From Mytilus edulis (lineage: Eukaryota): DNA of 64,000 bases. The stretch spans positions 20,274,001-20,338,000 of the forward strand of contig NC_092350.1 of the NCBI RefSeq assembly GCF_963676685.1, given 5' to 3'. Below, in pieces: positions 1-64,000 of the stretch. How positions within the stretch are numbered: position 1 is the first letter of the stretch; every line of letters starts with the position of its first letter. The notes beneath the pieces were generated by a model. It was not told the origin of the DNA. It did no database searches and was given only the letters and a program-made list of their open reading frames with translations. The translations under genes and the position numbers were made by a program.

Positions 1-238
1 TAAGTCAAGATATGAAGCCGACTTAACTGTATCTGTAGCATCCTTTATCTTAAAAGTGACATACTAAGTTTACAAACAAAAGCTGAGCAAATGGCATGAA
101 CTCTAAAAGGAGCGAGACCTGGTACGTCATACATTACCAGCCATCCAAATCTATATATACAGACAAAATGTTACAAATTGGAATAGGTCTAAGACGAAAT
201 GTATATATACAAAGACATATTTCAAATGTTGAACTTAC

Positions 239-3200
239 TTTGTGATTGTCCTTGACACTGTAAGTCAAGTTGTTGATTGAAGTCGCAGTCATAGATTTGA
301 CCATTCCAGTTGATGTTCATTAGGTTTCTACACATTAATCCATCTATTGTGTCTAGGTTGTAGTTTCTTACAAGTAACTCCATATAGTCTTTAAGCTCGT
401 TCCTTTTACATGCAAAAGAAAACACATGTTTTACTTTCGCACATTTTCTTGAAAAGCTAATAATCTTATTATATAAAAATTGAATAATTACTGACGGAAT
501 ACATGTAATCTGTCATACCAATTAGATTTTGGCATGTGCAACTGATGAAAAAAAGATGCCAAGGATGGCAAAAGGAGATTTAAATTCGTAAGTCTGAAAA
601 CGCCACTTCTAAAAAAAACAATAAATAATCAGACGAACAATACCAGTATAACAATCAAAACAAAATAGAAAACCAAAGACTGATCTTAACAACACTAACC
701 CCACCAAAATAGAGGGTGATCTCGGGTGCTCCGGAATGGTAATAAGATTCTGCTCCAGTTGTTGCACCCGTCTTGTTGCTTGTGTAATTAAAAAACCGGT
801 GATATGGTATTTTTTTTCGGTAATTCACATTCTTGGGAAAGGGGAAGAGTTTGTTTTTACGACAATTGGAACATATCCATCGTCATCTGTGTAAGAATTA
901 AGTATAATAGTTGAAACTCATATTCTCCTACAGACACGCATTTGCATTTCCCACGAATTTGACAATCCTGAGGATTACTTAGTCTGAACCGTTTATATAG
1001 CTTATGAGCATATATCATTTATTTCACATAAGGGTAATTCAAATAAAAGGTTTCAATTCTTTTTATCACATTAAAAAAAAATCACAGCTTCGCATTTTAA
1101 TTCGTTGATGCTCTAATTATATTATAGCGTATTTCTAGTACTGACCAATTTTAAAATGCCCAAGTTGGAATAGACATACAATTTTGGTACATTTTGTCTA
1201 ATTTTTGTGTATCAAAATTTGAATAAGGACATTCATATCCAAATTAAAAAATAAATATAGTAGAACAATTTTATAAAATCAATTTATATATGTAAAGGGA
1301 AATAACAAGTATTAAAAAAACAAATGAACTAAATACGACTATTTGTATGGTCTTTTTATATATATTGTGGATACCAAATATAGTTTGATATGAAACAAAA
1401 ACAGATTTTGTTATCCCCTTATATGCTGACACATTACTTACCATAATGATGATTTGAACATTTTTGGTGTTGTTTTAATATGGAACGTTTTCAAAACTTT
1501 AGTGTAAAGTGAACATCATATACAATCGTATATTAAAACCAACAGTATCTCAATCCAATAGAAATATAAATCATGTGTACACAAGGAAGCGATTAAACCA
1601 CGACTTCCAAGTGGTGAAGGTGGCATAATCTCTGCGAAAATATTAAAGATGCCATCACGAGTTGATGGACCATGAATGCATATCTGTTATCTGTTATCAC
1701 AGATGACGACGCATATGTTGGAAATATCGTAACCAAAGTCCCGTCTACTCTTCCTCGAATGTGGACTACTGAATTAAACTTATAACAGGGTTTGTACTTA
1801 TATGAGCAACATGATGGGTGCCGCATTTAGAACCGAATCAGCTTTACCTTCCAGAGCGCAAGTGTTCAACACTAGTATTTGGTGGTGTTCATCTTGCTTA
1901 ATAGTTTTATGTTTTCTATGTTGTGTTATGTATACAATTGTTTGTTTTTGGTCTTTTTCGTTTCTTTTTGCCATGATGTTGTCAGCGTAATTTTTGAAGT
2001 ATGAATGACCATATGGTATATTTCGTCCCTCCCTCGTATAACATGAAGAAGATCATGCTTATTTAAAAAAAAAAGATCATACATTTCAAGACATTTTGTT
2101 TGCATTTATAAAAGCTTTTTATATCAAGATTGCTACATCGTAACGAACATCGTAACGACATGTTCCTCGATGATGTGTAAATGATAAACAAATGGGGTTC
2201 AAAATGTAGCATTGTGGTACGATAGTCAAAATATCATGTTATAAGTCCAAAAGAACTGTATAAATCTTCAGCTCAAAATGATAGTACATGTGACGGCAAA
2301 CATTCATATCAAGTCTTTAGTATGAGAGATTTCCGTCAAATTATGTCAGAGAAGGAAGGTACGTCATTGTGATACAATAGTTTAAACACGTTCTTTGATT
2401 ACTCCCGTAAATATGGACAAATCAAAATGATGCTATAATGTGATAAACTACATGTGGTTTAAAATAATCCTTTTAAGTATGAGGATTTTCTGGCAATGAT
2501 CTCAAAGGATTTGCGTTCATAAGTTGACATCGTGATATAGTGAACAAAATTAAAAACGTCCATTTACACCAAAAATAATGTTCAAATCAAAATGAGATTG
2601 TAATATGATCATCTTCATATGATGCAAAACAACCCTGCAAAGTATGGAGGCTTTGTGTCATACGGTCTCGGAAAATTTGAGTTTACAATGTGTCAATGTC
2701 ACAATATTAAAACAAAGTGGTTAAAGTCCCATAACTCCCGTAAAATTATCAACTCAAAATAGGGTTAACTACATATAATGGCTGTCAAACGATCAGGTGG
2801 GTTGTTTTCTGAAGGTGTCAATGTAACAATAATAAACAAACGGTCAATGTCCTTTAGTCCATATTAATTGTTGAATTAAATTGCGTTTCAAAATGATTCA
2901 TTTCACATGATGGCAAACAATTATTACAAGTATGCAAGTTTTGTGTCAAATGGTACCAGAGAAGGTTCGCTAACAAGTGGTATTGGAACAATACTTAAAG
3001 GGCCAAGGTCTCAAAACTCCCTGAAAAATGTAGAAAATGTCAGTACAGTATGGTCAACTGCTTAGATCACAGAACATTCCTCTTACATCACTATGCAGGA
3101 ATATAGCCTAACATTACATTATTTTTTTATCAACAAGATCATTAAGATAATATATCTATAAATACTTCTTAATATATCATACCTTCGGTAAAGAAAATCA

Positions 3201-6200
3201 ACAAAACGTTTGATTGGCATATTTGTCATGGTGAACAGCTGCTTGAATTCTATTCCAAAATGTTCCATTAGTTCCGCCTTGTATTTCTCTGCTAACGGGA
3301 CCTGTGGTGGCGGTAGAAATCCACCTACAATAGAAATGTTGGAAGTACTTTCGTTCTATGGTGCATCGATTCATAGAACATTTTTGTATATATAATGTAT
3401 TTTCTTGTAGACTTGTCTTTCATTAATTACACTAGTCTAAATTCGAATTCAACTTACATGTTTGCTAATAATTTAAAAATACCAAAAAGAGTAGGGAAAT
3501 GGTCCCATTCGAAAATATTTCCCCTACATTGATTTGCTTACAGATTTTGTTTTTTGATTCGATTAAGGTCTAACAAGACAGACATGATTAGTAATACAGT
3601 ATAGCATAAATGTCAAGATCTCAAAAAAAAATTAATATGTTTTGTCAACATAATGTATAGTTGCCATCTTGATCAGCTGCAATTCTTAAACTTTATTATG
3701 AGTTCATGCATTGTTAATCAGTCTTCACACTCAAATTTTCATAGAACAGGCCAGGGGGTGAAGGCTGTACATTCTGAAACATCTTTGGAATTTCGGTTAT
3801 TCTGGTTAATGTTTTACTATGCTAATAAATTGGACAGATTATGCCCCTGATAAATTTGAGCTTACCTAATGGATTGTAAACCAAATCCAACTGCAAGTCA
3901 TCCTGTTTACCATAACCCAAAGAGTTGAGGACCAGTAAAGCATGGATGCTCTTATCAAATACTCCTTTTCCACGTTGCATGTTGACATTTTTAGCACTAT
4001 AACAAGGCAGTGAGGCTATAACATGCAGTTTGTGGTCGGCGAAGAACTGTGCAGTATCTTCTTGACCTAAACGACAATCATTATTAAACTAGGAAGAGCA
4101 AAACAAGAATTACTGAACAATATGATTATGAGGGGTTAAATAATTACTGTTATGAGTCGACTTTGTACTTGCTTACCATTAAGGAAACAAATGCATCTAA
4201 TCACAGATCCTATACACAAACTTAAGTAACAATTTCTATCACATTTAAATTTACACTTTTTACAAGTATAGTGGAGGAGTTGTTGTTGTGAAGTTGTGAT
4301 TAAGAAATTTCTGTTTAACTCTTTGACAGATTCATAACTTGATCTATTTCAGATATAATTTATTTTATAAATGTGACCTTCTCCTCTTGTTCGTCTTAGA
4401 TTCACTAAAAGTGTGGAACATTTGTAACAATAATGAAACAAAATCAATATATAATAACCAAAGTACCTTTGAGCACTATTAAAGAGACAATAATGTTTTC
4501 ATTTTGCAACATGAGCTAAAGCTTAAACATTTACTTGTTTAAGATCTCTAGAAAAAAATCAGGAATATTTTGAATCAGAGTAATCATCCTATTTCTCAAT
4601 ATGTAGACAATTTATTTAGAACAGACATGGTTTAATTTTTGATAAAACAGTTTTCTTGACAAGTATTGGTAATATACGCATGCACACCGACGAACTTGAG
4701 TGTATATTAATAAACTATTGCTTGACATGAGGATGAGGATGATCTAAAAGAGGACGAAAGATACCAAAAAGACAGTCAAACTCATAGATCGAGAATGTTC
4801 AACACATTGCACTGTTCTTTGTATGATTAATAGTGAAAGTGGAATAACTCTAATTTACCTGGTTCTAACAAAGAGGTTAAATTACTTCTCACAATAACGT
4901 CTCGACCAAGTTCTTTCCCTCTAGCTGCAAGATATCTGAATTCGGCATTTAGTTCTGGGGCGCCACCTGTGAGACGAAAATTATCATTTGGCATGATATG
5001 ACTATATATGGATTGCAAAAAACATCCCATTTTTCATGGCATACCGACTGGTTGGTTATTTTGCTGTACGTTCAATGGCAAATATATGGTAAAATAAAGT
5101 TGGTAGAAATTGTTAACTTACCGCTATGTTCTTAATAATATATTTTTACTATAATAACATGAGCATAGAAAATAGAATAGGACGTACTTTAATGAAGACC
5201 GGAATAACATCACCAAAAAAAGAAACAAGAAGAAGGACAGTTGACACTGAATGTAAAAGCATGAGAAAGACCTGGGATGAAATGGAGATGATTACAAAGG
5301 ACAGATAACAGTTGAGAGACCGGGTATCAGCATCATATGCCTGCCGGCATGAATAGGATTAATAAGTTAAGCAGTTAGAAAGTGAAACAAGAGTCAAATA
5401 TTTGAATTTTTAGCTAAATGGTATATAGTTAGTAAACGACAACCACTGAGCAAATTTGAATACATGTATACATTCATATAGCATTTATATTCAAACATTT
5501 ACTTGCCTTCTGTCTAAACATCACTTTTAATTTTCGAAGCACATGTACTTAGTTTAAAATAGATAACTGTTTTGTATTACAGTATATATAAGGCATCTAT
5601 TTCATTCAATTTTTCTGAAAATAATGAAAACAATAATAAACTAAAATCATATTTTTACTACCAAACCTACATCAAATGCACCGTAAAAAAATGTTTTTGG
5701 ACAGTTCTTACCTAGAAAAGATTCTGACTTTTACCTTTGAACATTATTTGACAATTCCACTCTAAAACAGATTTGGATAGCTCACAGATCCCACCCTATA
5801 ACATTACGAGAACTGTTTAGAACAGTTCTATTTCAGATTATTCTGACAGTGTCGCAAAGAGAATAGAACTGAACCAAACTGTATATCTAAAGTTTGATCC
5901 CCGCTTTGATATTTCTTTCTTCAAATCATTTGAAATGTATTGTTTTGTCAACCGTCATAGGTTTGAATCTTTACTATTTCCAACCTCTAGGGGTTAAGCA
6001 TATCCAAAAATGTAACCACTAAAACCGTAGCTTTCTCTCATATATAAGGGAGCTCTCATTATTTCACCACTTCATTTAAATGGTTTTACCTGTTAAATCC
6101 AGTATTGTTACAGACGGACTGTTTTCCAAGATCTCCATACATTTGACAGCTGTTTTATGGTCCATCATTTCTTTCCGTTTTGGCGATGATTCCACGTGGC

Positions 6201-9200
6201 AGTGATTACAAGCCTGGTTACAGTAGAGGCCTATGTTAATTTGCATTTGTTCACAAGGCTTTCTTGTTAGGGTTGATGGTCGAACTCCTGACAAATTAAA
6301 TAAACACAATGATGTAATATCTAAAATATTGTTATTTGTATGGAGAGTTGTCTCATTGGCACTCACACCACATCTTCCTATATCTATGATCCTAACAGAG
6401 TTGATACACATATCATTTCCTGCTAGCAAGACAAACATGTAACGGTAGGAACACAATACCTTTATTTGACTAATAAGATATAAGAAGATGTGGTATGAGT
6501 GTCAATGAGACAACTCTCCATCCAAGTCACAATTTGTAAAAGTAAACCATTATAGGTGAAAAGAACGGTCTCCCGACACGGAGGCTTAAGCTTGGATCAC
6601 ACCGACCAGCAAGCTATAAAGGGCCCAATATATGACACGTCTCAAACCATCAAACGGGAAAACCAATGGTCTAATATATATAAACAAGAATGCGTCCATA
6701 GAACACGGAGGCCCCACTCTCACGATCATTTTCTATTTTCAGTGTACCGTGACATTGGGGTCAAACATCGTATTTAAATTAGAAAGATCATATCATAGAG
6801 AACATGTATACTAAGTTTCAAATTGATTGGACTTCAACTTCATCTAACTCTACTTTGACCAAATATTTAACCTGAAGCGGGACAGATGGAGGAAGAACTT
6901 ACTGACCCACAGACCAGAATCTTTATACAGATTGATTGTTTTTGCTATATGGGTAAACTGTTTAAACCAATTAACCCATTAAGCAACACTGTATTTCATA
7001 AAAAGTCTGTACAAAATTTACCTACAATAAACACAAGTTTCTGAATTCAATGGTCATACCTGTCTTTTCCTCTGACTTTTGTTTCCAGAACTGAACAAAG
7101 TTTGGAACACCAAGGTCATCAAGTGCTCTTTGTCTTTTCTTTCTCTCTTCTTTTGTCATTTGTTTTTGGCCTAAGGTTTTCAGTTTCTCAGCTGTTAGTT
7201 TGAAGTCGGGGTCATTTTCCATTTCTTTCAACGTGTCCGGAATCAATGACCCCTATAGTAAATGCACATATTCTAGTTCAATGATAAATGGGGACCCATA
7301 AAGATAAAGCTAATCATTTGTTTTTAATTGATATTTTAGAACATAATATGAAATAACTACTTATATTGTTCCATATGGGAAAAGTTTAAATTTAGTATGC
7401 CATGATACAATTTACATGTACATTTGTATCTAATTTGTTAAACGTTTTTTTGCTACATGTTTCGAGGTAAAAAAGTGAGTTGGTGCCTAAGTGTTGTTTG
7501 AACTTTAAGTACTGTTATTTAAGAAACAAAGCAAACCAGAAAGAAAACAAATCCGAGACAATACTTCTTATTGGTTTCTTTTGGTTTTCTCATAGAGGCC
7601 AGCCCAGCGTTAGAGAAAATGGATGATGTAATTGTCCCAAATGATAACAAATAATCAGTAACAATTTTGTAACTAGAATGTGTTATCATTTTTTATTGTC
7701 ATGATTGTGTATATTTTTAAGAACACTTTTGATCCTATTCTGTGTACTTCTAAAAGTATTTATGCATACCTGGCTTTCAAATTTTTGATGTGAGCATTCT
7801 TAATGAAGGTAAATGCAGAAACAGTTCATTTATGTTTGGGATGTATGGTCTGGATACAACTGTGGGAAATTTGGAGGTTTGTGAGCACTTAAAACTTGTA
7901 TAGAAGCCAGGGTTGTTTTCACAAGTGATGTACATTTGTATACATGAATTTATATTTCATTTAAAAACTATATGCTTACTGTGTCATATTTATTTTTGTA
8001 ACAAATGTCTGTTCTATTATCAAAGGGGATGTTGGTAATCATCTAGATGTATACAGTTCATTTTGAAAACGCTCAATAATAAAAATTAGATGTAAAAATG
8101 TGTTTTTTGTTTATGCATTTTTTTGTTATTTTTTCAGAATTAAAATGTTTCATTTGCGAGAAATGATTGACAGGTGTGAATAGATGTAGAGGCTCCTACG
8201 GGGAAAGTTGTATCAAAAGGAAAATAACTTAATTCACAATGCCTATACATATTTTATAAATACGATATGTTGGCCTTATACTTAAAATTGAGTTTCTAAT
8301 AATAACATATAAAGGAACAGGACGTTAAAAGGGGGAAATAATATAACCATCAACGAAAACTCGTATAATTTACGGGATTGAAGTCTCAACAATTTGATTT
8401 AAACTTCTATTGAAAACAGTCAACTCTTGCATTGGTTGTTATTAGGCTTATTATTTTAAATTAGATGAAATATTTACGTTTTACAAATACAAATACAAAA
8501 TAGTTTATTGGCACAAAACTATTGAAATAATTGGCAACACAATATATTGTTAAAAATCGTCTTTATTTCTTTTTCAAATTATAAAAAAAATAAAATTAAT
8601 ATATTTAATTTTAATTTTCATTCTTATATTTAATTTTAATTTTAATTCTTATATTTAATTTTAATTTTTATTCTTTCTCTTTGAATACAAAACAATATTT
8701 TTCATTTATCTATCCTCCATAAATACTAATATATCTGTACAGGTAAAATTTAATTCTAATCAAGCTGGTACAGATTGATTTACGACCTTCCACTTGGATA
8801 TTGCACAGCATGTGTTTATTACACTGGGACAACTGTCGACCAGTCTGACATCTAGACGGATTAAGACATCCATAAAAATAAGTCCCTACCCGTACTGGTA
8901 ATACTCCACAATTTCTGAACTGTTGTACATTGTAAGAGAATTTAAACAACTGATAAGATTACTTTTATCCATTTTATAATTTTAAATGTATAGTGTACAT
9001 ACAAGTTCCTGTTTTAACTAATTTTTAGTTTTATCCTATTCTAACTCTGTTAATATTTTTTTAAATTTTAACCAGTAGATAGAATTTTAAATAACGCAAT
9101 TTCAAAAATAAACAAAATTTTTAAATGCGGTGACCATGCAGATAGGGTGGACTTCCAAAGAAGAAGAAGAAGAAGAAGAAGTAAGTGTATGATTTGCTTC

Positions 9201-9631
9201 AAGTATATTGCATACACATTCTGAATGTCAACTATTATTTTTTGACTGTCATTGACTGTACATATACATGTATGTTGACATTATGCGGTTGACATATAGA
9301 TTAAGCATACTCATGATAATATTAATGTTAAACATATCTGCAGACTCACCTTTGTCCTTTCTGCGAGAGCATCAAGACCAATCCATTTTCCAGAGACAGA
9401 GGGAGCAACTGTTTTTGGTTTTGACTTTGGCCTTGTCAACTTGTGAGATTCTACATTAATAGGTGTATTGTAATCAGGCAAATCAGGCTTCTGGGCTGGT
9501 GATGATTCTTTTGCTGCATCATCTTTAGATGTACTTCCTATACTTCTGGAATTTCCGAGGGTTCTAAAGTGGATTACATTACCATATCTGAGGTTAACTG
9601 TTCGATTTACGAATCTTAATAATAAACCCAT
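239..9631 (-). CDS. arsS: Spliced radical SAM / Cys-rich protein of the ArsS (arsenosugar biosynthesis; rSAM_SeCys, DUF3641) type; 3' end lies outside the window
   Basis: Hand-assembled GT-AG exons with consistent phases: 9350-9631, 7060-7252, 6090-6287, 4859-4966, 3866-4066, 3183-3324, 239-402 (1288 nt, open frame). Contains the CxxxCxxC motif QINIGLYCNQACNHCHVESSP, then LDLTGGAPELN, ASLPCYSAKNVNMQRGKGVF, LDLVYNPLGGFLPPPQ, TNMPIKRF and LMCRN...WNGQIYDCDFNQQL, all typical of this family. The symbol reflects family resemblance, not proven function. Confidence 0.88.
560..900 (-). repeat. Degenerate interspersed repeat (Penelope/SINE-like 3' module), inverted relative to the copy at 1600-2030
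   Basis: Reverse complement resembles 1700-2030 (acagatgacga...atgttcc; ttccggagcacccgagatcacc...tggtggggttagtgttg). Confidence 0.55.
1600..2030 (+). repeat. Degenerate Penelope-like 3' end / SINE-like repeat in an ArsS intron
   Basis: gccatcacgagttgatggac...tatctgtt..cacagatgac resembles the 'RHHELVDRY.ISVSQM' type C-terminus, similar to the end of the RT at 61088-61170, followed by the module shared with 560-900. Confidence 0.55.
5175..5372 (+). mobile_element. RTE-clade LINE 3' fragment (degenerate)
   Basis: Translates as IGRTL...PKKETRRRTVDTECKSMRKTWDEME..TKDR*QLRDRVSASYACRHE*D, matching the RTE C-terminal pattern, then a taag-like tail. Confidence 0.7.
6480..6690 (+). repeat. Abundant interspersed SINE-like repeat (aagaagatgtggtatga.tg.caatgagacaact...)
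   Basis: Related copies on either strand at about 6320-6385, 12100-12220, 30230-30420, 40140-40360, 46320-46430 and 58420-58556. Confidence 0.7.
8484..8950 (-). mobile_element. Probable LINE 3' end remnant
   Basis: Minus strand reads QFRNCGVLPVRVGT (resembles the LINE C-terminal 'FR.G.LP.R.ETGR' motif) and ends in AATAAA followed by a (TTGTAT)-type tail at 8484-8510. Confidence 0.4.
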
Positions 9632-10063
9632 TCCACAGACTAAAATTTTCGTTTACAGAATGTCTGGTAAACAGAAACAGCCGTACAACTGTCCAAAATC
9701 TAATAACTGGTAAAAGTCATCAATAAAATAACCAGTATTAAGAAAAATTATCCCGCTTATCAGCTTAATGTTCTATTGTTTGACATATGCAACATTGAAC
9801 TTCCACAAGTGCATTTTTCGTTGATTTATTTGTTCTCAATAGTGACCTTTTATAAAAATTATAAACTGAAAAAAACAACGGAAATGAAATGGATGTTATC
9901 CGTATTTAAAAAAGAGACGTCATCGATTTTTAAAAAAGTCTTTTCATGTCTAGATTCAGGATACAGTGGGCACTGCCAGTACTAGATCTATGTACCATGT
10001 TTACATGTATACCTAAATGAATAACTCCAAGTTAAAACCGTCATTCTTGAGGAGGATACATAG

Positions 10064-19953: not shown

Positions 19954-22107
19954 CTAAAATTCAATATTTAAGAAATCAGATACTAAGCTTAAACCTTTTT
20001 TCAAAACAGGCGGCACCGAACCACCCTCAACTAAAGGCTGCAGAATGTCAATCGCCGTATTTTTTGCAATACGTTTACCAGGATTAAAATGTTTAACAAA
20101 CAAATCCTTGTATATAAGAGGAAGTTTGAAGTAGAAGCGATAAAAATCCATTAATATGAAAACAGGTATTGTCTCATCAGCTTCTCGAATTGCTAGACAT
20201 AAATTAAGGATCGAATCCAGGTAATCCACCGAAGTTGTACTTTGTAGATTAAAGTCTTTCAGTAAACGAAGAGCCTTCCATTTTTCAAGGTTGTTTCCTA
20301 GATAATGATGGCAGAGAAATTGTAAATAATACATTCGTATCTGCGGATGAATAATTAGCACGTCCTCCTCAACATTTGGAGTTTGAGAATCTTCTTGATA
20401 AAACATTATATGTGGCTTTCCTTTTGGGGTAAGATAAAATAAATCCGAACACGAATGCTTAAATCGCTGCACAAAATGAAATCCAATTTTTTCCAACATT
20501 TTACTAATGGAGGGAGGCTTCAAACCAGGAGTTATTATCTGAGGTTTGGTCGAACTTTTATATTGACATAGTTGAATAATCTCAACAGCTTTTCTATGTT
20601 GTTTGCGTTGAAAAAAGAATTCGGCCAGTAGAAGCCAACCGGTATATGAATCAGAAAACGTACCTAGTATGGTATACCAAATGCATTTTTTGTAGTCTGG
20701 ATAGAATGTTTTATTACATTTTCGATTTTTTAACTTTGTGATATATCTATCATGGCATATCATAAATGGATAATGCTTCGCCAACGATCCGCACAGTTTT
20801 GAAAACCAAATGAAGCATATGTGCTTTAAAAGCTTACATTTTCTAGGAGACATTATAAAATAAATCGGCTGATATATGGTATTACTACCTCCATATCCTA
20901 TCCCATGCATATAATGTAAAAGCGGATAGATGATTAAGTCTATGTTACAATAGTTTAATTTGAACATTTTAGAAGTTAAAGGTGCTTCAATATGGTCAAA
21001 CAAATGTGAAAGAGTTTGTATTTGTTTTAAGGAACCATTTCCATTAGTTAAAAAATTACGTAAAAGTGATAGTAAAAACTTCTTTTTAGGTACATCAATT
21101 TTACCTTCTATCAAATTGTTGTTTGGTATAAAATAGTTCGGAAGGATATTGTACTGTATAAAAAATACTAGTCTTTTAATGCATGCTTGAAAGCATTCAA
21201 ACAATTTGGAAGGTTGCCATTCAGAAATCTGAGATTCTTCAATCATCCAGAATAATACTGTTTTCATAAAGTATGAACACAAGGAATCTTTTAATTTTTC
21301 GTGAACTACTAATACTTCTTTTAATGTATATTTTAGTAATGCATAACACATAATTTGTGTATGATTGAATGTATGAACAAGTTTTTTTTCCGCAATTGAG
21401 AAAGACATTCTCCATTCGTAAGGATTGTCCTTCTTGTTATTAAATTTACTTCCGATAGGAGCAAGTAATACATTATCTCGTACTATATCTTCAATCAGTT
21501 CTGTTGGGGGCCATTCATAATTGCGGGGTCTTGTTATCCACTCTACAGCTATTGTCGGCCACGAATGACATTTGTAAGTAGACAAGAAATCAAACGATCC
21601 ACGAATGGTAGAAGAACAAGGTCCATGTATCTCTGAAAAACTGTCCAATATTTTGCTCCGAGCTTTTGAAATATTCATGTCTTGTATTAAGTTTTTGTAG
21701 TGTTCATTTGATAATAAAATGTGGTTTCCAGAGTACACATGATTTTGTTTTTTACAATTTCTTTTTTTCAGATGTAGCTCAATATGCACATACCCCGGTG
21801 GTGTATTTTCGAAATTTAAAAAGAGTCCATATGGCAAGTCACTCGGTATTTCAGATTGTGTAGTGTATACTGTGTCGACCTGGTTGATATACATGATATC
21901 CAAGTCGCTCCCTGGTAAGTCTAAGCCTTCTGATTTACTTCCACTTGTCACTACTCGCCACTTAGGACTGTACTGTAAAGCATGATCTAGCACTTTAAAG
22001 AAAATTCGTCGTGCTCGGACGTCTTTTTCAGAGCCAACAATTTTGCAGAGAAAATCAAAAAGTTCTAGTGAGAAATTTGACTTCAGCGGCGCGGCTGGAA
22101 ATTCCAT
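19954..22107 (-). CDS. Mab-21 / cGAS-like receptor (cGLR) nucleotidyltransferase with a C-terminal helical (TPR-like) region, 717 aa
   Basis: Uninterrupted ORF. NTase signature SGSKSEGLDLPGSDLDIM, third acidic candidate in HGPC...GSFDF, Mab-21 motifs WP...EW..R.R...WP, EWRMSFSIAEKKLV, CSYFMKTVLFW and PNYFIPNNNL. A polypyrimidine-AG acceptor 2 nt before the ATG implies a 5'UTR intron. Confidence 0.92.
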   Translation of the reverse strand: MEFPAAPLKSNFSLELFDFLCKIVGSEKDVRARRIFFKVLDHALQYSPKWRVVTSGSKSEGLDLPGSDLDIMYINQVDTVYTTQSEIPSDLPYGLFLNFENTPPGYVHIELHLKKRNCKKQNHVYSGNHILLSNEHYKNLIQDMNISKARSKILDSFSEIHGPCSSTIRGSFDFLSTYKCHSWPTIAVEWITRPRNYEWPPTELIEDIVRDNVLLAPIGSKFNNKKDNPYEWRMSFSIAEKKLVHTFNHTQIMCYALLKYTLKEVLVVHEKLKDSLCSYFMKTVLFWMIEESQISEWQPSKLFECFQACIKRLVFFIQYNILPNYFIPNNNLIEGKIDVPKKKFLLSLLRNFLTNGNGSLKQIQTLSHLFDHIEAPLTSKMFKLNYCNIDLIIYPLLHYMHGIGYGGSNTIYQPIYFIMSPRKCKLLKHICFIWFSKLCGSLAKHYPFMICHDRYITKLKNRKCNKTFYPDYKKCIWYTILGTFSDSYTGWLLLAEFFFQRKQHRKAVEIIQLCQYKSSTKPQIITPGLKPPSISKMLEKIGFHFVQRFKHSCSDLFYLTPKGKPHIMFYQEDSQTPNVEEDVLIIHPQIRMYYLQFLCHHYLGNNLEKWKALRLLKDFNLQSTTSVDYLDSILNLCLAIREADETIPVFILMDFYRFYFKLPLIYKDLFVKHFNPGKRIAKNTAIDILQPLVEGGSVPPVLKKGLSLVSDFLNIEF

Positions 22108-23809
22108 TGCTAAAAAAGAGTCATTGCATGATCACTGAATAATCAAAACAAAACATAAAATATGCTTTGGAACAGTCATGAAATTGAGAATAAGTATGTT
22201 TAGACTTCTCAGTTAATGTATCATACATCATATATTATAAAGAATAAAAGAAAACATAACACATGTAAAAAATGTAGATACAAGGCAAGGATCATCAATC
22301 GTGCATCTAGAAACATAAGAACATCGCTACAATATAAACCAATAACCAACGAAATCATAGAAAAACGAAACAGTAATTATAAGCCACCTGGACCGAAAAA
22401 GTCTACATGTTTAGGAATATAAGGTATCTTCTGAAATTGATGAAAATTTACAGAAGTAGAACAAAAAATCTGAGAATGAAGATGTAGGAATATATTCCTA
22501 GCCCTAGATGTTCAAAGGGAGATAACCGATGTTACTTAATTGGAATTGTTTTAAACGGCTTTGTTGGTATAGATGAAACTTTACAAAGGTATAATGTACA
22601 CAGTGAAAGATTGTTTAATATATTTTGTAGACATAATACAAATTGTGATACCCTTTTGTGAGTTTACTTACAGTTCTTGTTGCTTCGAGTGTCACTGATA
22701 TAATAATTTTTAAAATGCGTATCAGATGTATAAAAATTAGTTTGTTGAGTTTGAGATATAAGCACCAACCTACCACATACACTGATATCTTTAAATCTGT
22801 AAAGCTAGATTCATAGGATATTGCATACAAAGTTTTTTAAATTAATTTACTAATGCATGTGGCATGTCTCCAGATGATTATGTTCTTATTTTCTGTCCTT
22901 GTTGGTTACTTTCTATATTTCTCTTTAGATTTACCATATATAATAAAATGTTATAGTAATAAGGAAAATGAAATTCTCTGCGCAAAAACGATTTAACAAA
23001 ATATACAATGAAATAGTCACTTACTTCAATAACTGTATGCATGCAACTTTACATGTTGACTGTAGAAATTGAAATGTTTTGTACTTATATATACCCATGC
23101 ACATTCAGTGTTGTTCATAAATTATGTGCATAAAGCTTTTTATTATTGTTAGACTTTTAGATATTCATATTAGTCATAGTCTATAAGATATTATTTCATT
23201 TACAAGGAAATTATCTTATCAATTGTGTCTTGTTTTTGTTTTTTTAATTCTTCCTTAAAATGAAAAGCCTATGTAAACGCATCGGTGGTCTCGTGGTATC
23301 TTGTGTGTCTGTGTGTGTGGAGGGGGGTATCAAGAGTAGCTGTTTCGGTTCTTATACATCATTGGCTTTCAAATATTCTGCTTTTGATTAAATTAATTGA
23401 CATTAAATTCAAACATTTATGACGTGTTTTATTTATTTTTAAGGTTTGTATGTGCATGTTTTGTCAGGAAAGATTGTTAAAATTGTAAAAGATCAATCTT
23501 ACTGTAGGTCACTATTCGAACCAAGTGTTTTTGTACGCTTCTAGTTACTTTACTGTATGTAGGTAATAAAGCACAACTTCAATTTTAAGAAAGATTTTAA
23601 AGATATTGCATTAGTATATATTAAACTGCATTCTTGTGTGGGTACACAGCGCTATGTGGAGGCTTCGCCTGAATGAAATTTCAGTTTATCATATAATGAT
23701 GCTGCTATCATTATTGTTTCTGTGTAAAATTGGATATCTGACAAAATCGTTTTTTAATGTGCATCTCAGTGAGCATTTCTTTAAATTTGTAGTGGATAAT
23801 TCTATTTTA

Positions 23810-40755: not shown

Positions 40756-42533
40756 AACTAGAGGCTCTAAAGAGCCTGTGTCGCTCAACTTGGTCTATGT
40801 GAATATTAAAGGAAGCAGATGGATTCATGATAAAATTGTGTTTTGGTGATGGTGATGTGTTTGTACATCTTACTTTACTGAACATTCTTGCTGCTTAAAA
40901 TTATCTCTATCTATAATGAACTTGGCCCATTAGTTTCAGTGGAAAATGTTAGTAAAAATTTACAAATTTTATGAAAATTGTTAAAAATTGACTATAAAGA
41001 ACAATAACTCCTAAGGGGGTCAATTGACCATTTCAGTCATGTTGACTTATTTGTAAATCTTACTTTGCTGAACATTATTGTTGTTTACAGTTTATCTCTA
41101 TCAATAATAATATTCAAGATAATGACCAAAAACAGCAAAATTTCCTTAAAACTAACAATTCAGGGTCAGCAACCAAACAACGGGTTATCCGATTCATCTA
41201 AAAATTTCAGAGCAGATAAATGTTGACCTGATAAACAATTTTACTCCATGTCAGATTTGCTCTAAATGCTTTGGGTTTTGAGTTGTAAGCCAAAAACTGC
41301 ATTTTATCCCATGTTCTATTTTTAGCCATGGCGGCCATCTTGGTTTGATGGCCGGGTCACCGGACACATTTTTCAAACTACTAACCCAAAAGATGATTGT
41401 GGCCAAGTTTGGATTAATTTGGCCAAGTAGTTTCAGAGGAGAAGATTTTTGTAAAAGATAACTAAGATTTACGAAAAATGGTTAAAAATTGACTATAAAG
41501 GGCAATAACTCCTAAGGGGTCAACTGACCATTTCAGTCATGTTGACTTATTTGTAAATCTTACTTTGCTGAACATTATTGCTGTTTATAGTTTATCTCTA
41601 TCTATAATAATATTCAAGGTAATAACCAAAAAGAGCAAAATTTCCTTAAAATTACTAATTCAGAGCCAGCAACCCAACAACGGGTTATCCGATTCATCTG
41701 AAAATTTCAGGGCAGATAGATCTTGAACTGATAAACAATTTTATCCCATGTCAGATTTGCTCTGAATGCTTTGGGTTTTGAGTTATAAGCCAAAAACTGC
41801 ATTTTACCCCATGTTCTATTTTTAGCCATGGCGGCCATCTTGGTTTGATGGCCAGGTCACCGGACACATTTTTCAAACTACTAACCCAAAAGATGATTGT
41901 GGCCAAGTTTGGATTAATTTGGACCAGTAGTTTCAGAGGAGAAGATTTTTGTAAAAGATTACTAAGATTTACGAAAAATGGTTAAAAATTGACTATAAAG
42001 GGCAATAACTCCTAAAGGGGTCAACTGACCATTTCAGTCATGTTGACTTATTTGTAAATCTTACTTTGCTGAACATTATTGCTGTTTACTGTTTATCTCT
42101 ATCTATAATAATATTCAAGATAATAACCAAAAACAGCAAAATTTCCTTAAAATTACTAATTCAGGGGCAGCAACCCAACAACGGGTTATCCGATTCATCT
42201 GAAAATTTCAGGGCAGATAGATCTTCACCTGTTTAACAATTCTACCCCATGTCAGATTTGCTCTTAATGCTTTGGTTTTTGAGTTATAAGCCAAAAACTG
42301 CATTTTACCCCTATGTTCTATTTTTAGCCATGGCGGCCATCTTGGATGGTTGGCCGTGTCACCGGACACATTTTTTAAACTAGATACCCCAATGATGATT
42401 GTGGCCAAGTTTGGTTTAATTTGGCCCAGTAGTTTCAGAGGAGAAGATTTTTGTAAAAGTTAACGACGACGCCGGACGCCGGACGCCAAGTGATGAGAAA
42501 AGCTCACTTGGCCTTTTAGGCCAGGTGAGCTAA
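40756..42533 (+). mobile_element. Helentron/DINE-like non-autonomous element with ~500-bp internal tandem repeats (3 copies)
   Basis: Starts aactagaggctctaaagagcctgtgtcgctca; unit marker ttaaaaattgactataaag at 40981, 41482 and 41982; gacgccg microsatellite; terminal hairpin agctcacttggcc-tttta-ggccaggtgagct (42501-42531); inserted in an A-run of an older related element (about 40460-43580). Confidence 0.8.
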
Positions 42534-44920: not shown

Positions 44921-45987
44921 TTGTAAGGGTTCCGTGGAACCCAGTGTCTCGCCTATTTTTGCTGTAAATTGCAGGATCAACAAAAATGAGGGAAAAAATC
45001 AATAAAAATATTCCGCTTGATACCATGTTTGGATTGTAGGAAGCTTCTGTCCAAGTTTGGTAAAAAATCCTGGATAGTTTATGAATCTAATAAATGTTTT
45101 AAAAACTTTAACTCCAGACTGGATGTAATGTTAACTGGAAGAAAAACTAAGTCCATTTATAAGTAAAATAAAGATACACAGGTACAAAATATTAACAAAA
45201 TTTCCTTGTAGATACTAGCTTTTGATCATAAACAAGCTTCTGTCTTAGTTTGGTACAAATAAAAAATAGTATAAGAAAGTTATCAAAATTTTTAAAAATT
45301 TAACCAGAGTGAAAGTGTTGTTTCCTGGCAGAAAAAAAGTCCATTTAAAGTAAAATATGGAAAAAATGGATTTGTCATTTTACAAAATTTACTTCTGGAT
45401 ACTATCTTATGATCATAAACAAACTTCTGTCCAAGTTTGGTACAAACCAAGGATAGTTTAAGAGAGTTATTAAAATTTTAATAACTACAATCACAGAGTG
45501 ATGTAATGTGTTCCCGCAGAAAAACTAAGTGCATTTATAAGTACAATATGGAAAAAATGGAAAAAATGGAATTTTATTTTCACAAAATTTACTTCTGGAT
45601 ACTATCTTATGATCATAAATAAGCTTCTGTCCAAGTTTGGTAGAAATCCAGGATAGTTTAAGAAAGTTATTTAAATTTTAAAAACTTTAAACCACAGAGT
45701 GTATGTAACATGTGTAATGTTTTCCCGCAAAAAAACAAAATCCATTTATCATGTTTATAAGTAAAATACGGAAAAAATGGAGTTTCATTTTCACAAAATT
45801 TACTTCTGGATACTATCTTATGATCATAAACAAGCTTCTGTCCAAGTTTAGTAGAAATCCAGTATGGTTTAAGAAAGTTATTAAAATTTTAAAAACTTTA
45901 ACCACAGAGTGAATATTTGTGGACGCCATCACCGACGACGGAATGTAGGATCGCTTAGTCTCGCTTTTTCGAAAGGCTCGACAAAAA
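44921..45987 (+). mobile_element. Helentron/DINE-like element with ~190-220-bp internal tandem repeats
   Basis: gggttccgtggaaccc palindrome at the start; repeated unit gatcataaacaagcttctgtccaagtttggta; gacgcc/gacg microsatellite and a terminal hairpin-like end. Confidence 0.72.
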
Positions 45988-49259: not shown

Positions 49260-52200
49260 TCACGGTTCCTCTTCACCAGACTCATATAATTGAATATTAT
49301 CTCCATTATTTCTGATGCTGCTTCCGGTTAATTCAGCTCGATAATCAGAATAATAGATTTCTTCGTACTCCCAGTATCTATCTAGCCTATTTTTGAATGA
49401 GTTTATAGATGGCGCTTTAGTTACTTTATCTGGTAACTTGTTCCATAATTTGGCTATTCTTACAGAAAAACTGTTTTTCCTCAGACTTGTTTTGAATCGT
49501 TGGTGGATGATTTTATTACTGTTTACTCTTGTGCTATGTCTATTTTCAGTGCTTGAAATTAATTTAAGGAATGAACTTGTTTCTGGATCGTAATTACCAT
49601 TTAGTATCTTATATGTCTCAATCATGTCCCCTCGGACCCTTCTATATGACAATGTTGGCAGCTTGAGTTTTTTCAGTCTTTCCGGGTAGCTCAATTTATT
49701 GAAACCTGGTATCTGTCGTGTTGCCCTTTTTTGTACATTTTCGATTTTGTCGATGGATTTCTTTTTAAAAGGTGACCATACAGAGCTAGCATAGTCTAAG
49801 TGTGTTCGCACTAATGTTTTGTATAGAGGTATGAAGATTTTTTCGTTTAAGTTTTTAAATGTCCTTCTAATTGCGGCAAAAGTTGAATTAGCTTTATTCA
49901 CTTTTTCGCATATGTGTCTTTCAAAGGTTAGATCTTCATCAATTACTACTCCAATATCTTTCTCTTCTTGACATTTACTTATATCATGACCTAATAGTTT
50001 GTAACTTGTCTTTTCTTCCCTTACCCCTCTACTTATATTTATGTGTTTGCATTTTTCTGGATGGAACTTTAACAGCCATGTATCACTCCATTTCTCGAGA
50101 TTTTTTAGATCATCTTGCAATATAATTTGATCTGTTTTGCTTTCAATAATTCTGAAGATTTTTGTGTCATCCGCGAATAAGTAGGCATCTGATGTCACGC
50201 AATCTGGCAAATCATTTATGTATAGAACAAATAACAGGGGACCTAATACTGAGCCTTGTGGAATTCCTGAGGTTACATCTTTCCACTCTGGTGTTTCCCC
50301 ATTAACTGAAACTCGTTGTTTTCTATACGATAGAAAATCTGTTATCCACTCTAGGAATGGATTAGTTATCCCAAAATTTTCGATTTTCTTAACGAGTCGT
50401 CTATGGGGTACCGTATCAAAGGCTTTCATGAAGTCTGTATATATGCAGTCAATCTCATAACCATTGTCTATAGCTTCTGTCCATTTATCTATTACCTCTA
50501 ATAGTTGTAGTGATGTCGATCTCCCAGAGATAAATCCGTATTGTTTGTTTGAAAATAGTTTATTTTCTTTCATGTAATTAATTATATGTTCTCTTATTAT
50601 TTTCTCCATTATTTTACAGACGACTGATGTGAGACTTACTGGTCTATAATTTTTAGCTTGTGATTTATTCCCTTTTTTGAATATTGCACTCACTAGGGCG
50701 CTTTTCCAATCCTTTGGAACTACTTTTTGTGTTAAAGATTGGCTAAAAATGATGCCAAGTGGTTCAGCTATACCTTCTTTGACTTCAAACAGCAGTCTTG
50801 GGTGTAAATTATCAGGGCCGGGTGATTTATCCGTTTTTATTTTTTGTAGGTGTTTCAAAACCAATTCAGTGCCAATATTTAATTCCTCTATTTTTTTGTC
50901 TAATGGAATGTGCTTAGGCTCTGGAATATTGCCTTGTGGTTCATTAGTGAATACGCTTGTAAAATATTCTGATAGTATCTCGGCCTTTTGTTTATTGTCA
51001 TCTGTTTTTTCGGATTTTACATCTTCTGTATCTACATGAAGGTCCCCTATACCTTCCCTGGTCTTTGATTTAGATTTTATGTAGCTCCATATAGCCTTTG
51101 GGTTTCTTTTGGCATTTTCAGATAATCCTTTTTCGAATAATTTCTTTTGTTTATTGACTGATGTTTTGGCCTGGTTTCTGACTTTATTGTATTCAGCTCT
51201 TGTTTCAGGATCTTGTTTAGTTATAATTTTTTTGGATAGAATATTTTTCCTTCTAATTAACTCCCTCGTCTTTTTATCTATGGGGAATACATTTCTCTTT
51301 TTTCCTATTTGTGTCATAGTTTTTGTTGGTACAAATCTGCTCTCTAATTCTTTTAAAATGGTTAAAAAATAATTCCAATTTTTATCAATGGAATTTTCAG
51401 CATTAAGCTTATTATGCCAGTCTATTTTATTCAGCTCTTGAATAAATTCTTTGTAATTTCCATGGTTGTACAGATTAGCTATTTTCGGTGCTCTTTTTAT
51501 ATTTACATAACAGTTAAAATCAAAGGATAGGACGCAGTGGTCACTTTTTCCAAGCGGGCTCATATATTCTAGGTTTGAAATCATCTCTTCTTCATTTGTG
51601 ATTAGTAAGTCAAGTGTATGGGGTGTGTCAGCTCCTCTCCATCTTGTTGGTTTTGTTGTGTGTTGGTACAGAAAATTATCTTGTAGTGCTTCCAGAAATT
51701 TATTTTCAGTGCTGTTTGGTCTATCCCCCTTTGTGTTCCATGTTTCCCAGTTTATTTCAGGATAATTAAAATCTCCCATGATGAGTATGTGTGAGTACCC
51801 CATATCTGTTGCCTCTGACATTAGGTCTACTAGCTTATCATTGTATTCCTTGGAACTGTTGGATGGGGTTCTATATATCAGACCCACAAGGAGTTTGTCA
51901 TTTTGATTAAGTTTTACTTTTATAAATAAATTTTCCTGAAACTCTGTCTTCATTGTAATTTCTGTAGCTTCTAGATTGGAGTCTACATACATTAAAAGGC
52001 CTCGTCCTTCATCTGACTTTATGTTTTTCTCAAACATTTTGTAATTTCCTACCTCTGGTATTGAATATTCCGCTGTTGATGGTTTATATCTATTAGCTTT
52101 CGGTTTTACTTCTGTTATCCCAATGATATTTGGTTTGTTGTCTCTTGTACGAACGATCAATTCTGACATTTTGTTGAATAGCTGATCTGCATTTGTATAA

Positions 52201-52334
52201 AAACAGTTCAATTTTGGTAGAACTGTAAAGTTATTTACATTGCCGTTAAAAACCTTTCCCTTCTTTTGTACATTTATAAGTACATTTTTTGTGTCTCTTT
52301 TCACCTTTTTATTTTTACTACTTTCCTCGCCCAT
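49260..52334 (-). CDS. LINE ORF2: APE endonuclease plus reverse transcriptase (CR1 clade), 1024 aa
   Basis: APE motifs CFYTNA, GITE, IYRTP, MGDFNYP, LDL and SDH; RT motifs KSPGPD, NYRPVSLTS, DFMKAFDTV, GIPQGSVLGP and LFADDTK; CR1-type C-terminus (ENVQKRAT, RRVRGDMI, WNKLP, FKNRLD). No stops. Confidence 0.96.
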   Translation of the reverse strand: MGEESSKNKKVKRDTKNVLINVQKKGKVFNGNVNNFTVLPKLNCFYTNADQLFNKMSELIVRTRDNKPNIIGITEVKPKANRYKPSTAEYSIPEVGNYKMFEKNIKSDEGRGLLMYVDSNLEATEITMKTEFQENLFIKVKLNQNDKLLVGLIYRTPSNSSKEYNDKLVDLMSEATDMGYSHILIMGDFNYPEINWETWNTKGDRPNSTENKFLEALQDNFLYQHTTKPTRWRGADTPHTLDLLITNEEEMISNLEYMSPLGKSDHCVLSFDFNCYVNIKRAPKIANLYNHGNYKEFIQELNKIDWHNKLNAENSIDKNWNYFLTILKELESRFVPTKTMTQIGKKRNVFPIDKKTRELIRRKNILSKKIITKQDPETRAEYNKVRNQAKTSVNKQKKLFEKGLSENAKRNPKAIWSYIKSKSKTREGIGDLHVDTEDVKSEKTDDNKQKAEILSEYFTSVFTNEPQGNIPEPKHIPLDKKIEELNIGTELVLKHLQKIKTDKSPGPDNLHPRLLFEVKEGIAEPLGIIFSQSLTQKVVPKDWKSALVSAIFKKGNKSQAKNYRPVSLTSVVCKIMEKIIREHIINYMKENKLFSNKQYGFISGRSTSLQLLEVIDKWTEAIDNGYEIDCIYTDFMKAFDTVPHRRLVKKIENFGITNPFLEWITDFLSYRKQRVSVNGETPEWKDVTSGIPQGSVLGPLLFVLYINDLPDCVTSDAYLFADDTKIFRIIESKTDQIILQDDLKNLEKWSDTWLLKFHPEKCKHINISRGVREEKTSYKLLGHDISKCQEEKDIGVVIDEDLTFERHICEKVNKANSTFAAIRRTFKNLNEKIFIPLYKTLVRTHLDYASSVWSPFKKKSIDKIENVQKRATRQIPGFNKLSYPERLKKLKLPTLSYRRVRGDMIETYKILNGNYDPETSSFLKLISSTENRHSTRVNSNKIIHQRFKTSLRKNSFSVRIAKLWNKLPDKVTKAPSINSFKNRLDRYWEYEEIYYSDYRAELTGSSIRNNGDNIQLYESGEEEP

Positions 52335-53278
52335 GGCGGTCCTCGTACTTTGAACAGGAAGTCCCCCGAGTTGTTTTCTTGAAGTTTTTTTGCCTCAGCC
52401 CACAGTCTCTTTTCTTCTTCTCTCTCACTTTTAGTAAGGTCATTGCTTACATTTACTTTTTGGTATTTGGGATATGATCTAATATAATGCATGTTTCTAA
52501 ATAGGGTTAGTTTTGAGTCTATGCTCTTCAAATGGACTAATAGAGGTCTGTTTGTTTTTTCTTTATCATATTTCCCTAGTCTTTGTGTTTTTCTGATGTT
52601 TTCAATATCCAATGTTATCTTGGCATCTTTAAAGAGTTGGACTATATTTTCTACATCATGTTCTATTCTTTCTTGTTTATTTTCCGACTCATTTTCTGTT
52701 ATCCCAAATATGATCAGATTATTTTCCCTTGTTTTTCTCTCATTTATTTCCTCTAGTACTGTGGTTACTGTTCCTTGATTTGGTAGCACTCCACCTTCAA
52801 TATCCTCGGATACAACATTAGCTACTGCCCCTCCATTTAATGCTTCTTCTTTAGCTATTTCTCTTACTCTTTCCTCGTCACATTTGTGTTTTATAATCTC
52901 CTGGCTAACTATATCTCTTACTTCTTCTTTATCACATTTCTTTTCTATGGCGATTTCTATGTCATTTATTCTTTGCTCGTAGTTGTCCATGATCTCTCGG
53001 CATCTCTCTTCGATTTTCAGATCAGTAACTATGTGTTCTTCAACTACTTGTCTACATGGGGCGCAGAACCACATTGTGTCTGAGTTACTTAATATTTCAT
53101 ATTCAGTTTTTGATTTATTTAAACACTTTATGCAGAAATGCTCTTTACATCTTTGACATTCAAGGAGTTTAGCGTCTTCATTTTTATATATCTTTTGGCA
53201 TATTTTGCATTCCCATGGGTCTTCCTTTTTTTGATCGCTTGTTGCATTTGAGGTAGATTTATTCCTTCTTGTTGCCAT
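52301..53278 (-). CDS. LINE ORF1: PHD-type zinc finger, coiled coil and RRM-like domain, 325 aa
   Basis: CKIC...CQRCKEHFCIKC...WFCAPC (Cys at the usual His position), charged helical region, RENNLIIFGITE, RLGK...RPLLV and NDLT..ER motifs typical of CR1/L2 ORF1. Confidence 0.92.
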   Translation of the reverse strand: MATRRNKSTSNATSDQKKEDPWECKICQKIYKNEDAKLLECQRCKEHFCIKCLNKSKTEYEILSNSDTMWFCAPCRQVVEEHIVTDLKIEERCREIMDNYEQRINDIEIAIEKKCDKEEVRDIVSQEIIKHKCDEERVREIAKEEALNGGAVANVVSEDIEGGVLPNQGTVTTVLEEINERKTRENNLIIFGITENESENKQERIEHDVENIVQLFKDAKITLDIENIRKTQRLGKYDKEKTNRPLLVHLKSIDSKLTLFRNMHYIRSYPKYQKVNVSNDLTKSEREEEKRLWAEAKKLQENNSGDFLFKVRGPPWARKVVKIKR

Positions 53279-53312
53279 AGCTACTACTATAGTTGATTTA
53301 TTTATTTTTATA

Positions 53313-53974
53313 TAGGGCTTCCCTAAATGAAAATATATTAATTTATTTATTTTATTTCATATAATAGAGCTTCTCTATTATTAAAATAAGAAATGAGTTA
53401 ATATTTTTATCTAGTATTTTAAAATTTAGGGCTTCCCTAAAAATAAAATTTCTCTAGATAATATTATTTATCTTCCTGATATTAGATAGAGCTTCTCTAT
53501 CTATAATTATTTTTTTCTAAGCTTGTTGTCCCTTTATTCTGCTCTTTCCTATGTCCTATATTAGGGCTTCCCTAATAGAATTGATCGTTAAGTTGTAATC
53601 TCCTTTCTATTTATCCGGACGAATAGGGCTTCCCTATTCATCTAAATAATTATGAAGTATGTTAATGTTAGATAGAGCTTCTCTATCTATTCTAGGCCCC
53701 CTATTATTTGTTCTATACTTAGTTATGCTAGCTATCTCTGTATGGTCTTTTATGTTGTTAATTCCTAGAAAAACAGGGCTTCCCTACTTTTCTAATATTT
53801 TATTCAATTTTTTAAATAACTTTTTAATTTATGATCTAATAGGGCTTCCCTATTCTTTTTATTATTTGAGTGATGTTGTTGATTTTCCTCTTTGCTTTAT
53901 AATTAAGGCTTCCTTAATTATATTACGCAGAATAATTCGGATCTAGTATGTTAAACAAGGCTTCCTTATTTAAC
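53313..53974 (-). repeat. Array of 11 stem-loops with invariant G-AAG-C loop and unique spacers; two more at 54877-54899 and 54965-54979
   Basis: Loop centres at 53319, 53371, 53433, 53493, 53568, 53630, 53679, 53780, 53846, 53910 and 53962; stems of 5-13 bp vary in sequence but stay paired. Confidence 0.92.
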
Positions 53975-63208: not shown

Positions 63209-63366
63209 ACTAACAATCGTGCATTAATTTACCATATGAATAGACATTATTAAATTAATCTAACGAGAGCAATACTGTGTACATATCACAGACAAGCAGG
63301 AAGTCATCATCATCTTCCAATAATTGTCAAGAGTCGAAGATGACTGTAGATATTGAAGTCTATCAT

Positions 63367-64000
63367 GATGTTAGATGTACTGTGCTATATACATTCATAA
63401 ACAAATAGTGATGTTAAATGTACTGTGCTCTATACATTTATAAACTAATATTGATGTTAAATGTATTGTGCTCTATACATTTATAAACAAATATTTATGT
63501 TAGATGTACTGTGCTATATACATTCATAAACAGATAGTGATGTTAACATGTTAGATGTACTGTGCTCTATACATTTATAACACATATTGATGTTAGTTGT
63601 ACTGTGCTATATTCATTCATCAACAAATAGTGATGTTAGATGTACTGTGCTTTATACATTTATAAACAATAGTGATGTTAAATGTATTGTGCTCTATACT
63701 TTATAAACACATATTGATGTATTGTGCTCTACACATTTATAAACAAATATTGATGTTAGATGTACTGTGCTCTATACATTCATGAACAAATAGTGACGTT
63801 AAATGTACTGTGCTCTATACATTTATAAACAAATAGTGATGTTAAATGTATTGTGCTCTATACATTTATAAACACATATTGATGTTAGATGAACTGTGCT
63901 ATATACATTCATAAACAAATAGTGATGTTAGATGTACTGTGCTCTATACATTTATAAACAAATTTTGATGTTCAATGTATTGTGCTCTATACATTTATAA
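63367..64000. repeat. 43-bp tandem satellite, about 15 copies, continuing past the window end
   Basis: Unit gatgttagatgtactgtgctctatacatttataaacaaatagt at 63367, 63410 and onward. Confidence 0.95.

Follow-up and report, generated by a model that had tools for sequence, protein, structure and literature searches.

An expressed ArsS-family gene of the mussel Mytilus edulis, a likely selenoprotein with a predicted place in an animal arsenosugar pathway

The ArsS-family gene and its product

We analysed a window of 64,000 nucleotides of the Mytilus edulis genome (1.37 Gb), at G000:C7:20274001-20338000, and describe here a gene of the ArsS family of radical S-adenosylmethionine (SAM) enzymes that lies at its left end. 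The gene has nine exons on the minus strand, with exons 8 and 9 to the left of the window. The seven exons inside it (9631..239, minus strand) all have GT-AG ends and join into 429 codons free of stops; a preliminary description, made from the letters of the window, had placed a clean spliced gene at 239..9631, and these coordinates proved exact. Unless another contig or stretch is named, positions are those of the window, and the exons and motifs of this gene are all on the minus strand.

The RNA contig extends to 9830 and gives exon 1 a 5' untranslated region (UTR) portion at 9632..9830; four upstream open reading frames (ORFs) of 6-13 codons seen there in the sequence (9720-9814, minus strand) are possible control points for translation or selenocysteine (Sec) insertion. 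Coding exon 1 (9350..9631), set by the reading frame and the RNA contig, holds the start codon, the presequence-like N-terminus (residues 1-36 at 9524..9631, predicted from composition to be a mitochondrial presequence) and the beginning of the eukaryote-specific extension. Exon 2 (7060..7252), judged from sequence and model, encodes the conserved helical extension of eukaryotic members and has no family match. Profile matches then place the beginning of the radical SAM barrel in exon 3 (6090..6287; TIGR04167 positions 2-60), with its CxxxCxxC motif (C181, C185 and C188) at 6199..6222. They continue through exon 4 (4859..4966; positions 62-96), which carries a GGAPEL motif, exon 5 (3866..4066; 99-163), exon 6 (3183..3324; 167-210), where DUF3641 begins, and exon 7 (239..402; 214-264), with the invariant C399 and C414. 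By RNA joints, intron 7 starts at 1..238 and leaves the window at its left end. Flanking DNA fetched from there supplied coding exon 8 (C7:20272949-20273074; 8449-8574 of stretch L002, minus strand) and, together with RNA, the non-coding exon 9 (L002 about 5395-7047, minus strand).

The preliminary description had made its reading depend on expression, and spliced RNA spans all of the introns: 8 of 8 were confirmed as joints in raw reads of run X24, which carries an organism code other than that of most runs. A 3101-nt contig of run X2, taken as RNA by guess, has the same eight joints, and the pieces listed show no mismatch. When the genome was searched with the protein, there were eight matches, all of them exons of this gene, which is thus single-copy. 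Up to an in-frame UGA in exon 8, the protein agrees residue for residue with RefSeq XP_071120086.1 (464 aa), annotated as "uncharacterized protein [Mytilus edulis]".

Assignment to the ArsS family, proposed from the letters and now examined by hidden Markov model search, is clear. The whole protein scored 402 bits against TIGR04167 (cut-off 300), with the next-best family at 33, and four further animal proteins scored 407-412 bits. TIGR04167 is the best match of each of exons 3-8, which together tile positions 2-298 of the 303 in the profile, although the exon scores sum to 324 bits against 402 for the whole protein. Pfam domains are Radical_SAM and DUF3641. The motif CNQACNHC (CxxxCxxC) occupies residues 181-188, and the cysteine-rich HCxGCTAGxGSS(C/U) tail, expected in the last exons, is present at the C-terminus in exon 8. 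In the alignment of eukaryote-type relatives, seven cysteines are kept by all 43, namely the three of CxxxCxxC, C399, C414, C454 and C457. Compared with a cyanobacterial ArsS whose gene lies two genes from arsM, the mussel protein shows 46% identity over 306 residues. None of the outcomes named beforehand as counting against the assignment (another family, a missing tail, no expression) occurred.

A structural model was available for a close relative, P0001 (mean predicted local distance difference test score, pLDDT, 78). Its best structural matches are Twitch/SPASM radical SAM folds (SkfB, SuiB, BlsE, EpeE, anSME and MoaA; Z 14-16, root-mean-square deviation 3-4 A over ~240 residues), which reach about residue 460; their identity is 13-20%, and the fold gives no function. 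A sequence search of the PDB found no ArsS structure, and the nearest clusters in an Atlas search were DUF3641 proteins. The gene is a real, well-supported animal ArsS orthologue.

Relative to bacterial ArsS, the mussel gene is a spliced nuclear gene with a eukaryotic SECIS-like hairpin in its 3'UTR (described below), and its product has ~160 extra N-terminal residues, made up of a predicted presequence and the helical region conserved in eukaryotic members (~110 residues). The first 36 residues hold five Arg, one Lys and no Asp or Glu, residue 37 being the first acidic one; the earlier count of five Arg and no acidic residue was therefore correct. We compared the first 25 residues of 31 named eukaryotic relatives, which include several close relatives of one another, and 26 of these had at most one acidic residue and a net charge of at least +3. 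The same charge pattern occurred in 16 of 468 internal 25-mers and in 4 of 39 short bacterial-type homologues. The N-terminal region is unalignable across relatives and not hydrophobic (maximum hydropathy 0.44), and the P0001 model gives residues 1-45 a pLDDT below 50. Composition and its conservation among orthologues support the presequence-like character first noticed, and the N-terminus probably targets the protein to mitochondria.

The in-frame UGA and selenocysteine

Exon 8 reads ...HCFGCTAGMGSS-UGA-QGVTV-UAA, with the in-frame TGA (C7:20272968-20272970, minus strand), likely Sec 465, lying 19 nt before the last junction. It falls at the family's Cys/Sec site, where the preliminary description had foreseen either residue. 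Across 155 loci with the tail, the codon at this site was UGA in 22 and Cys in 133, and nothing else was seen. The tail was found in 75 of 80 metagenome loci (TGA 22, TGC/TGT 53, TAA/TAG 0), and bacterial genome loci had Cys in 80 of 80; an earlier metagenome scan with one protein query had found no relative among 42 stretches. All 22 TGA loci run on with a short xG tail like that of the Cys forms, and by best match 21 are algal-type and one copepod-like. Among database proteins, 41 of 58 in a first set stop at GSS and 11 pass through Cys, while in a set of 65 sequences 40 stop and 24 pass. Those ending at GSS come from molluscs, a brachiopod, a nemertean, an annelid, copepods, hemichordates, amphioxus and a sponge; those continuing via Cys are from echinoderms, a priapulid and brown algae.

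The mussel 3'UTR contains one canonical form II hairpin resembling a Sec insertion sequence (SECIS), inside the transcript and 653 nt past the UGA in the mRNA (C7:20270857-20270921; L002 6357-6421, minus strand). A SECIS had been suggested as a possible companion of the tail; the hairpin lies within the 3'UTR, but it scored 19.1 bits against Rfam RF00031 in a 301-nt scan, where the gathering score is 35. It was also missing from the Rfam matches to the 30 kb on the window's left side, where hits with E values as high as 10 were admitted. A relaxed SECIS pattern, adopted after a strict version had matched only 5 of 22 TGA loci, occurred at 12 of the 22; it was present at 17 of 133 Cys loci and on none of 22 reverse strands. 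Searching the whole genome with RF00031 yielded 124 matches; many of them score equally and are probably repeats, and the search was useless as calibration.

Besides that sub-threshold score, several points count against this hairpin and against Sec. Its folding z is about -2, and chance occurrences of the pattern numbered 20 in 300 simulated UTRs and 2 in 64 genomic tiles (3-7%). Most of the Cys controls are bacterial and rich in GC, 21 of 22 TGA loci are algal-type, and for the other named animals the protein end was seen rather than the codon. Taken by itself, the hairpin is modest evidence. The genome also has five tRNA-Sec matches above the cut-off, four of equal score at C7:74.8-75.4 Mb and one at C1:49.15 Mb, which speaks for Sec machinery in the host. 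Because UGA or Cys alone occupies the site in 155 relatives, the product is very likely a selenoprotein of 470 aa that RefSeq cuts at 464, with the UGA, as we read the sequence, decoded through the 3'UTR SECIS. An AATAAA at L002 6434, 21 nt upstream of the SECIS core, is a possible control point for Sec insertion.

Inheritance, partner genes and surroundings

Named homologues were found in ten animal phyla, brown algae, diatoms, cryptophytes and chlorarachniophytes. The matches listed, most of them unnamed, included none with a vertebrate, insect, nematode, cnidarian or gastropod name, which does not show that these groups lack the gene. The preliminary description had asked whether the gene was inherited vertically or horizontally. 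In a tree of 101 rows, from which 12 candidates without the full core had been left out and 29 long-branch or near-duplicate rows dropped, 29 named animals form one clade (Shimodaira-Hasegawa-like approximate likelihood ratio test, SH-aLRT, 98), with the sponge inside it and algal and protist rows, brown algae included, beside it. The branch parting the 15 named bacteria, those closest to the eukaryotic profile, has support of 91. One animal clade of ten phyla beside algal sequences points to vertical inheritance, and vertical descent within animals is well supported; a transfer of ancient date, into early eukaryotes or the stem of the animals, may have occurred.

We also searched the mussel genome for genes that could act before and after ArsS. 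A sequence search found an AS3MT/ArsM-type arsenite methyltransferase gene at C4:17244889-17261909 (minus strand), whose product has an acidic N-terminus and is for that reason likely cytosolic. Its intron near 17260000 carries a short tandem copy of the end of an exon. Searches with TIGR04282 and TIGR04283, both labelled "arsenosugar biosynthesis glycosyltransferase" by NCBI, each led to one locus, at C1:85.431-85.459 Mb. A GT-AG model there (C1:85431200-85458949, minus strand, 11 exons) has an open frame of 509 aa in which a hydrophobic anchor at the N-terminus is followed by a TIGR04282 domain and, behind it, by one of TIGR04283; this is an apparent fused glycosyltransferase. Nine of its 11 exons match in order, covering profile positions 1-182 of 189 (TIGR04282) and 1-196 of 221 (TIGR04283), and the joined protein scored 155 and 173 bits against locally built, rather than curated, profiles. 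With the AS3MT-type, ArsS, TIGR04282 and TIGR04283 matches, all four families sought have a homologue in the mussel; the finding of this AS3MT-type gene and apparent fused glycosyltransferase in the same genome appears to be new here.

In bacteria, these families travel with arsS. Of 40 bacteria drawn from 80 arsS-bearing genomes, 40 had TIGR04282 and 32 had TIGR04283 above cut-off, compared to 1 of 14 control genomes in each case. ArsS is fused to an arsenite-methyltransferase-like domain in 6 of 8 hand-picked long homologues, and the fusions occur in both orders (P0210, P0238, P0240, P0254, P0283 and P0299). The mussel resembles arsS-bearing bacteria in having an arsenite methyltransferase gene and candidate members of both glycosyltransferase families in the same genome, and differs from them in that the partners are unlinked and the glycosyltransferases apparently fused behind a membrane anchor, with function predicted.

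The remainder of the window holds unrelated features. A long single ORF of about 716 aa with a Mab-21 C-terminal domain (19954-22131, minus strand) presumably encodes a cGAS-like receptor. A long interspersed nuclear element (LINE) retrotransposon at 49260-53356 (minus strand) has an open ORF1 with a PHD finger and an ORF2 of 1044 aa with endonuclease and reverse transcriptase, and further ORF or reverse-transcriptase-like fragments at 54016-54840 and 61088-62211 (minus strand) comprise a 274-aa ORF without Pfam match and fragments like another element. Tandem arrays with periods of 500, 211 and 43 lie at 40922-42464, 45344-45912 and 63366-64000. About 20 kb left of the window, Rfam matches to the precursors of mir-1986 and mir-1990 (8571-8632 and 8916-8981 of stretch L004, minus strand), both mollusc families, form a cluster with the orientation of the ArsS gene.

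A candidate arsenosugar pathway and its alternatives

Arsenosugars and arsenolipids count among the main arsenic species of seafood. Algae and microbes are generally held to be their source, and the arsenosugars of bivalves are usually attributed to diet. We favour, with a probability of about 0.6, the reading that the mussel gene is an expressed, vertically inherited animal ArsS, likely a selenoprotein and predicted to be mitochondrial, that would act in the middle of an arsenosugar pathway likely to be the animal's own. The route would run from methylation through radical adenosylation of dimethylarsenite to glycosylation. Bacterial ArsS adenosylates dimethylarsenite, DMA(III), to DDMAA in a redox-neutral reaction (PMC13598754; bioRxiv 10.64898/2026.04.29.721666). 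The mussel protein is like this DDMAA synthase of cyanobacteria (TIGR04167, rSAM_SeCys) in its profile coverage, CxxxCxxC motif, DUF3641 domain and tail.

In the proposed scheme, mitochondria would provide Fe-S clusters, SAM and reductant for ArsS. Dimethylarsenite would come from the cytosolic AS3MT or from diet, C454/C457/U465 would hold As(III), and the 5'-deoxyadenosyl radical would add to arsenic to give DDMAA, an activity we would expect, with reasonable confidence, to be seen in vitro. The membrane-anchored TIGR04282-TIGR04283 fusion could then, at even odds, convert DDMAA to arsenosugars or arsenolipid head groups. Our model for the tail is ArsL, in which arsenic is bound by C-terminal cysteines (bioRxiv 10.64898/2026.04.29.721666). 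ArsL is alike in forming a C-As bond by radical SAM chemistry, but it transfers an aminocarboxypropyl group to arsenite and belongs to another family, and no ArsL family match is listed for the mussel protein. The partner genes in the mussel genome and the spread of the family suggest that marine invertebrates, mussels among them, probably do not obtain all of their arsenosugars from food but produce some of them.

A number of observations weigh against this pathway. The animal ArsS members are known here from sequence and RNA alone, the tree is a quick one with SH-aLRT support values, and the cyanobacterial ArsS compared is a different protein from the experimentally characterised Synechocystis ArsS. 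Because the fold resembles Twitch/SPASM enzymes, the tail cysteines may ligate a second Fe-S cluster instead of arsenic. The fused glycosyltransferase is a model on genomic DNA, its exon 8 was picked by eye among 14 candidates, and its exon scores sum to 125 (TIGR04282) and 141 bits (TIGR04283), under the cut-offs of 134 and 182. The arsenosugar role of these two families presumably rests on co-occurrence. The ArsS, AS3MT and glycosyltransferase genes lie on different chromosomes (C7, C4 and C1) and their products in differing predicted compartments, and AS3MT, which is also found in humans (PMC5398495), says little alone.

Two narrower accounts of the chemistry deserve weighing, and we consider both unlikely. 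ArsS could act by adenosylation to scavenge toxic trivalent methylarsenic in mitochondria, with the bulk of tissue arsenosugar coming from algae. This would fit the predicted location and the unlinked partner genes, and As(III) is known to hit dithiol enzymes of mitochondria, but the retention of a fused pair of arsS-associated glycosyltransferases suggests processing past DDMAA. Alternatively, and with marginally lower odds, the eukaryotic ArsS, TIGR04282 and TIGR04283 proteins, and perhaps many bacterial ones, could yield another adenosyl- or ribosyl-derived metabolite, such as a selenium, sulfur or phosphorus analogue, with arsenic a side activity. The family is common in soil and marine bacteria, the eukaryotic form has its extra helical region, and identity to the cyanobacterial protein stands at the level given above. 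Repeated fusion or adjacency with arsenite methyltransferases argues for arsenic, however, as do orthologues in brown algae, which are classic arsenosugar producers, and the retention of all seven alignment-invariant cysteines (7/7) in the mussel protein.

The remaining objections concern the gene itself. Were the UGA a true stop, the 464-aa RefSeq protein would be complete and no selenoprotein; the sub-threshold SECIS is compatible with this, and the AATAAA upstream of its core might cost some transcripts the element. The site nevertheless has TGA or Cys codons alone in 155 of 155 loci with the tail, the read-through peptide is conserved, and the SECIS is enriched at TGA loci and covered by transcripts in the mussel, and on these grounds we rejected a plain stop codon as very improbable. 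As the family is mainly known from bacteria, one might suspect contamination, or a recent horizontal transfer whose donor was a bacterium or a food alga. This is scarcely credible for a gene with eight spliced introns on a 93-Mb contig, with mir-1990 and mir-1986 matches ~20 kb off and a place in an animal clade that includes a sponge, and the tree and RNA joints rule it out.

Selenoprotein catalogues bear on how new the animal family is. Full-text searches found no literature on animal ArsS; one oyster selenoproteome paper, by Baclaocos et al. in 2019, may list a radical-SAM family. A radical-SAM profile is reported to exist in Selenoprofiles, and in UniRef some animal members are already auto-labelled ArsS-like, while several algal homologues and one from mussel are named "Fe-S oxidoreductase". 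The terms "radical" and "RSAM" are absent from the main text of a metazoan selenoproteome survey (PMC3473315, term search) and of a 2026 vertebrate survey (PMC13134290). ArsS is described as a predicted prokaryotic selenoprotein in a table of PMC9312934. The algal "FeS oxidoreductase" selenoproteins of PMC7539508 are probably the same family, judged from the name alone, and our algal-type ArsS loci have UGA and SECIS. Among the 19 algal families that the paper gives as shared with animals, this one is not named, and the passage on it assigns no arsenic function.

The favoured arsenosugar reading would draw a link between selenium status and arsenic speciation and offer a candidate single-chain enzyme for the steps after DDMAA. 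It would also add to the selenoproteins a radical-SAM member whose database entries are cut short in many invertebrates. More tentatively, and at slightly less than even odds, marine invertebrates from sponges to amphioxus may have kept from early eukaryotes an entire arsenosugar pathway that depends on selenium, made up of a cytosolic AS3MT, a mitochondrial Sec-ArsS and a membrane-anchored fused glycosyltransferase. In that case, part of the organoarsenic of shellfish would be the animal's own product, and ArsS would be an animal selenoprotein family with radical rather than thiol-redox chemistry. With this animal gene set, the question of whether shellfish make their own arsenosugars becomes testable with named genes.

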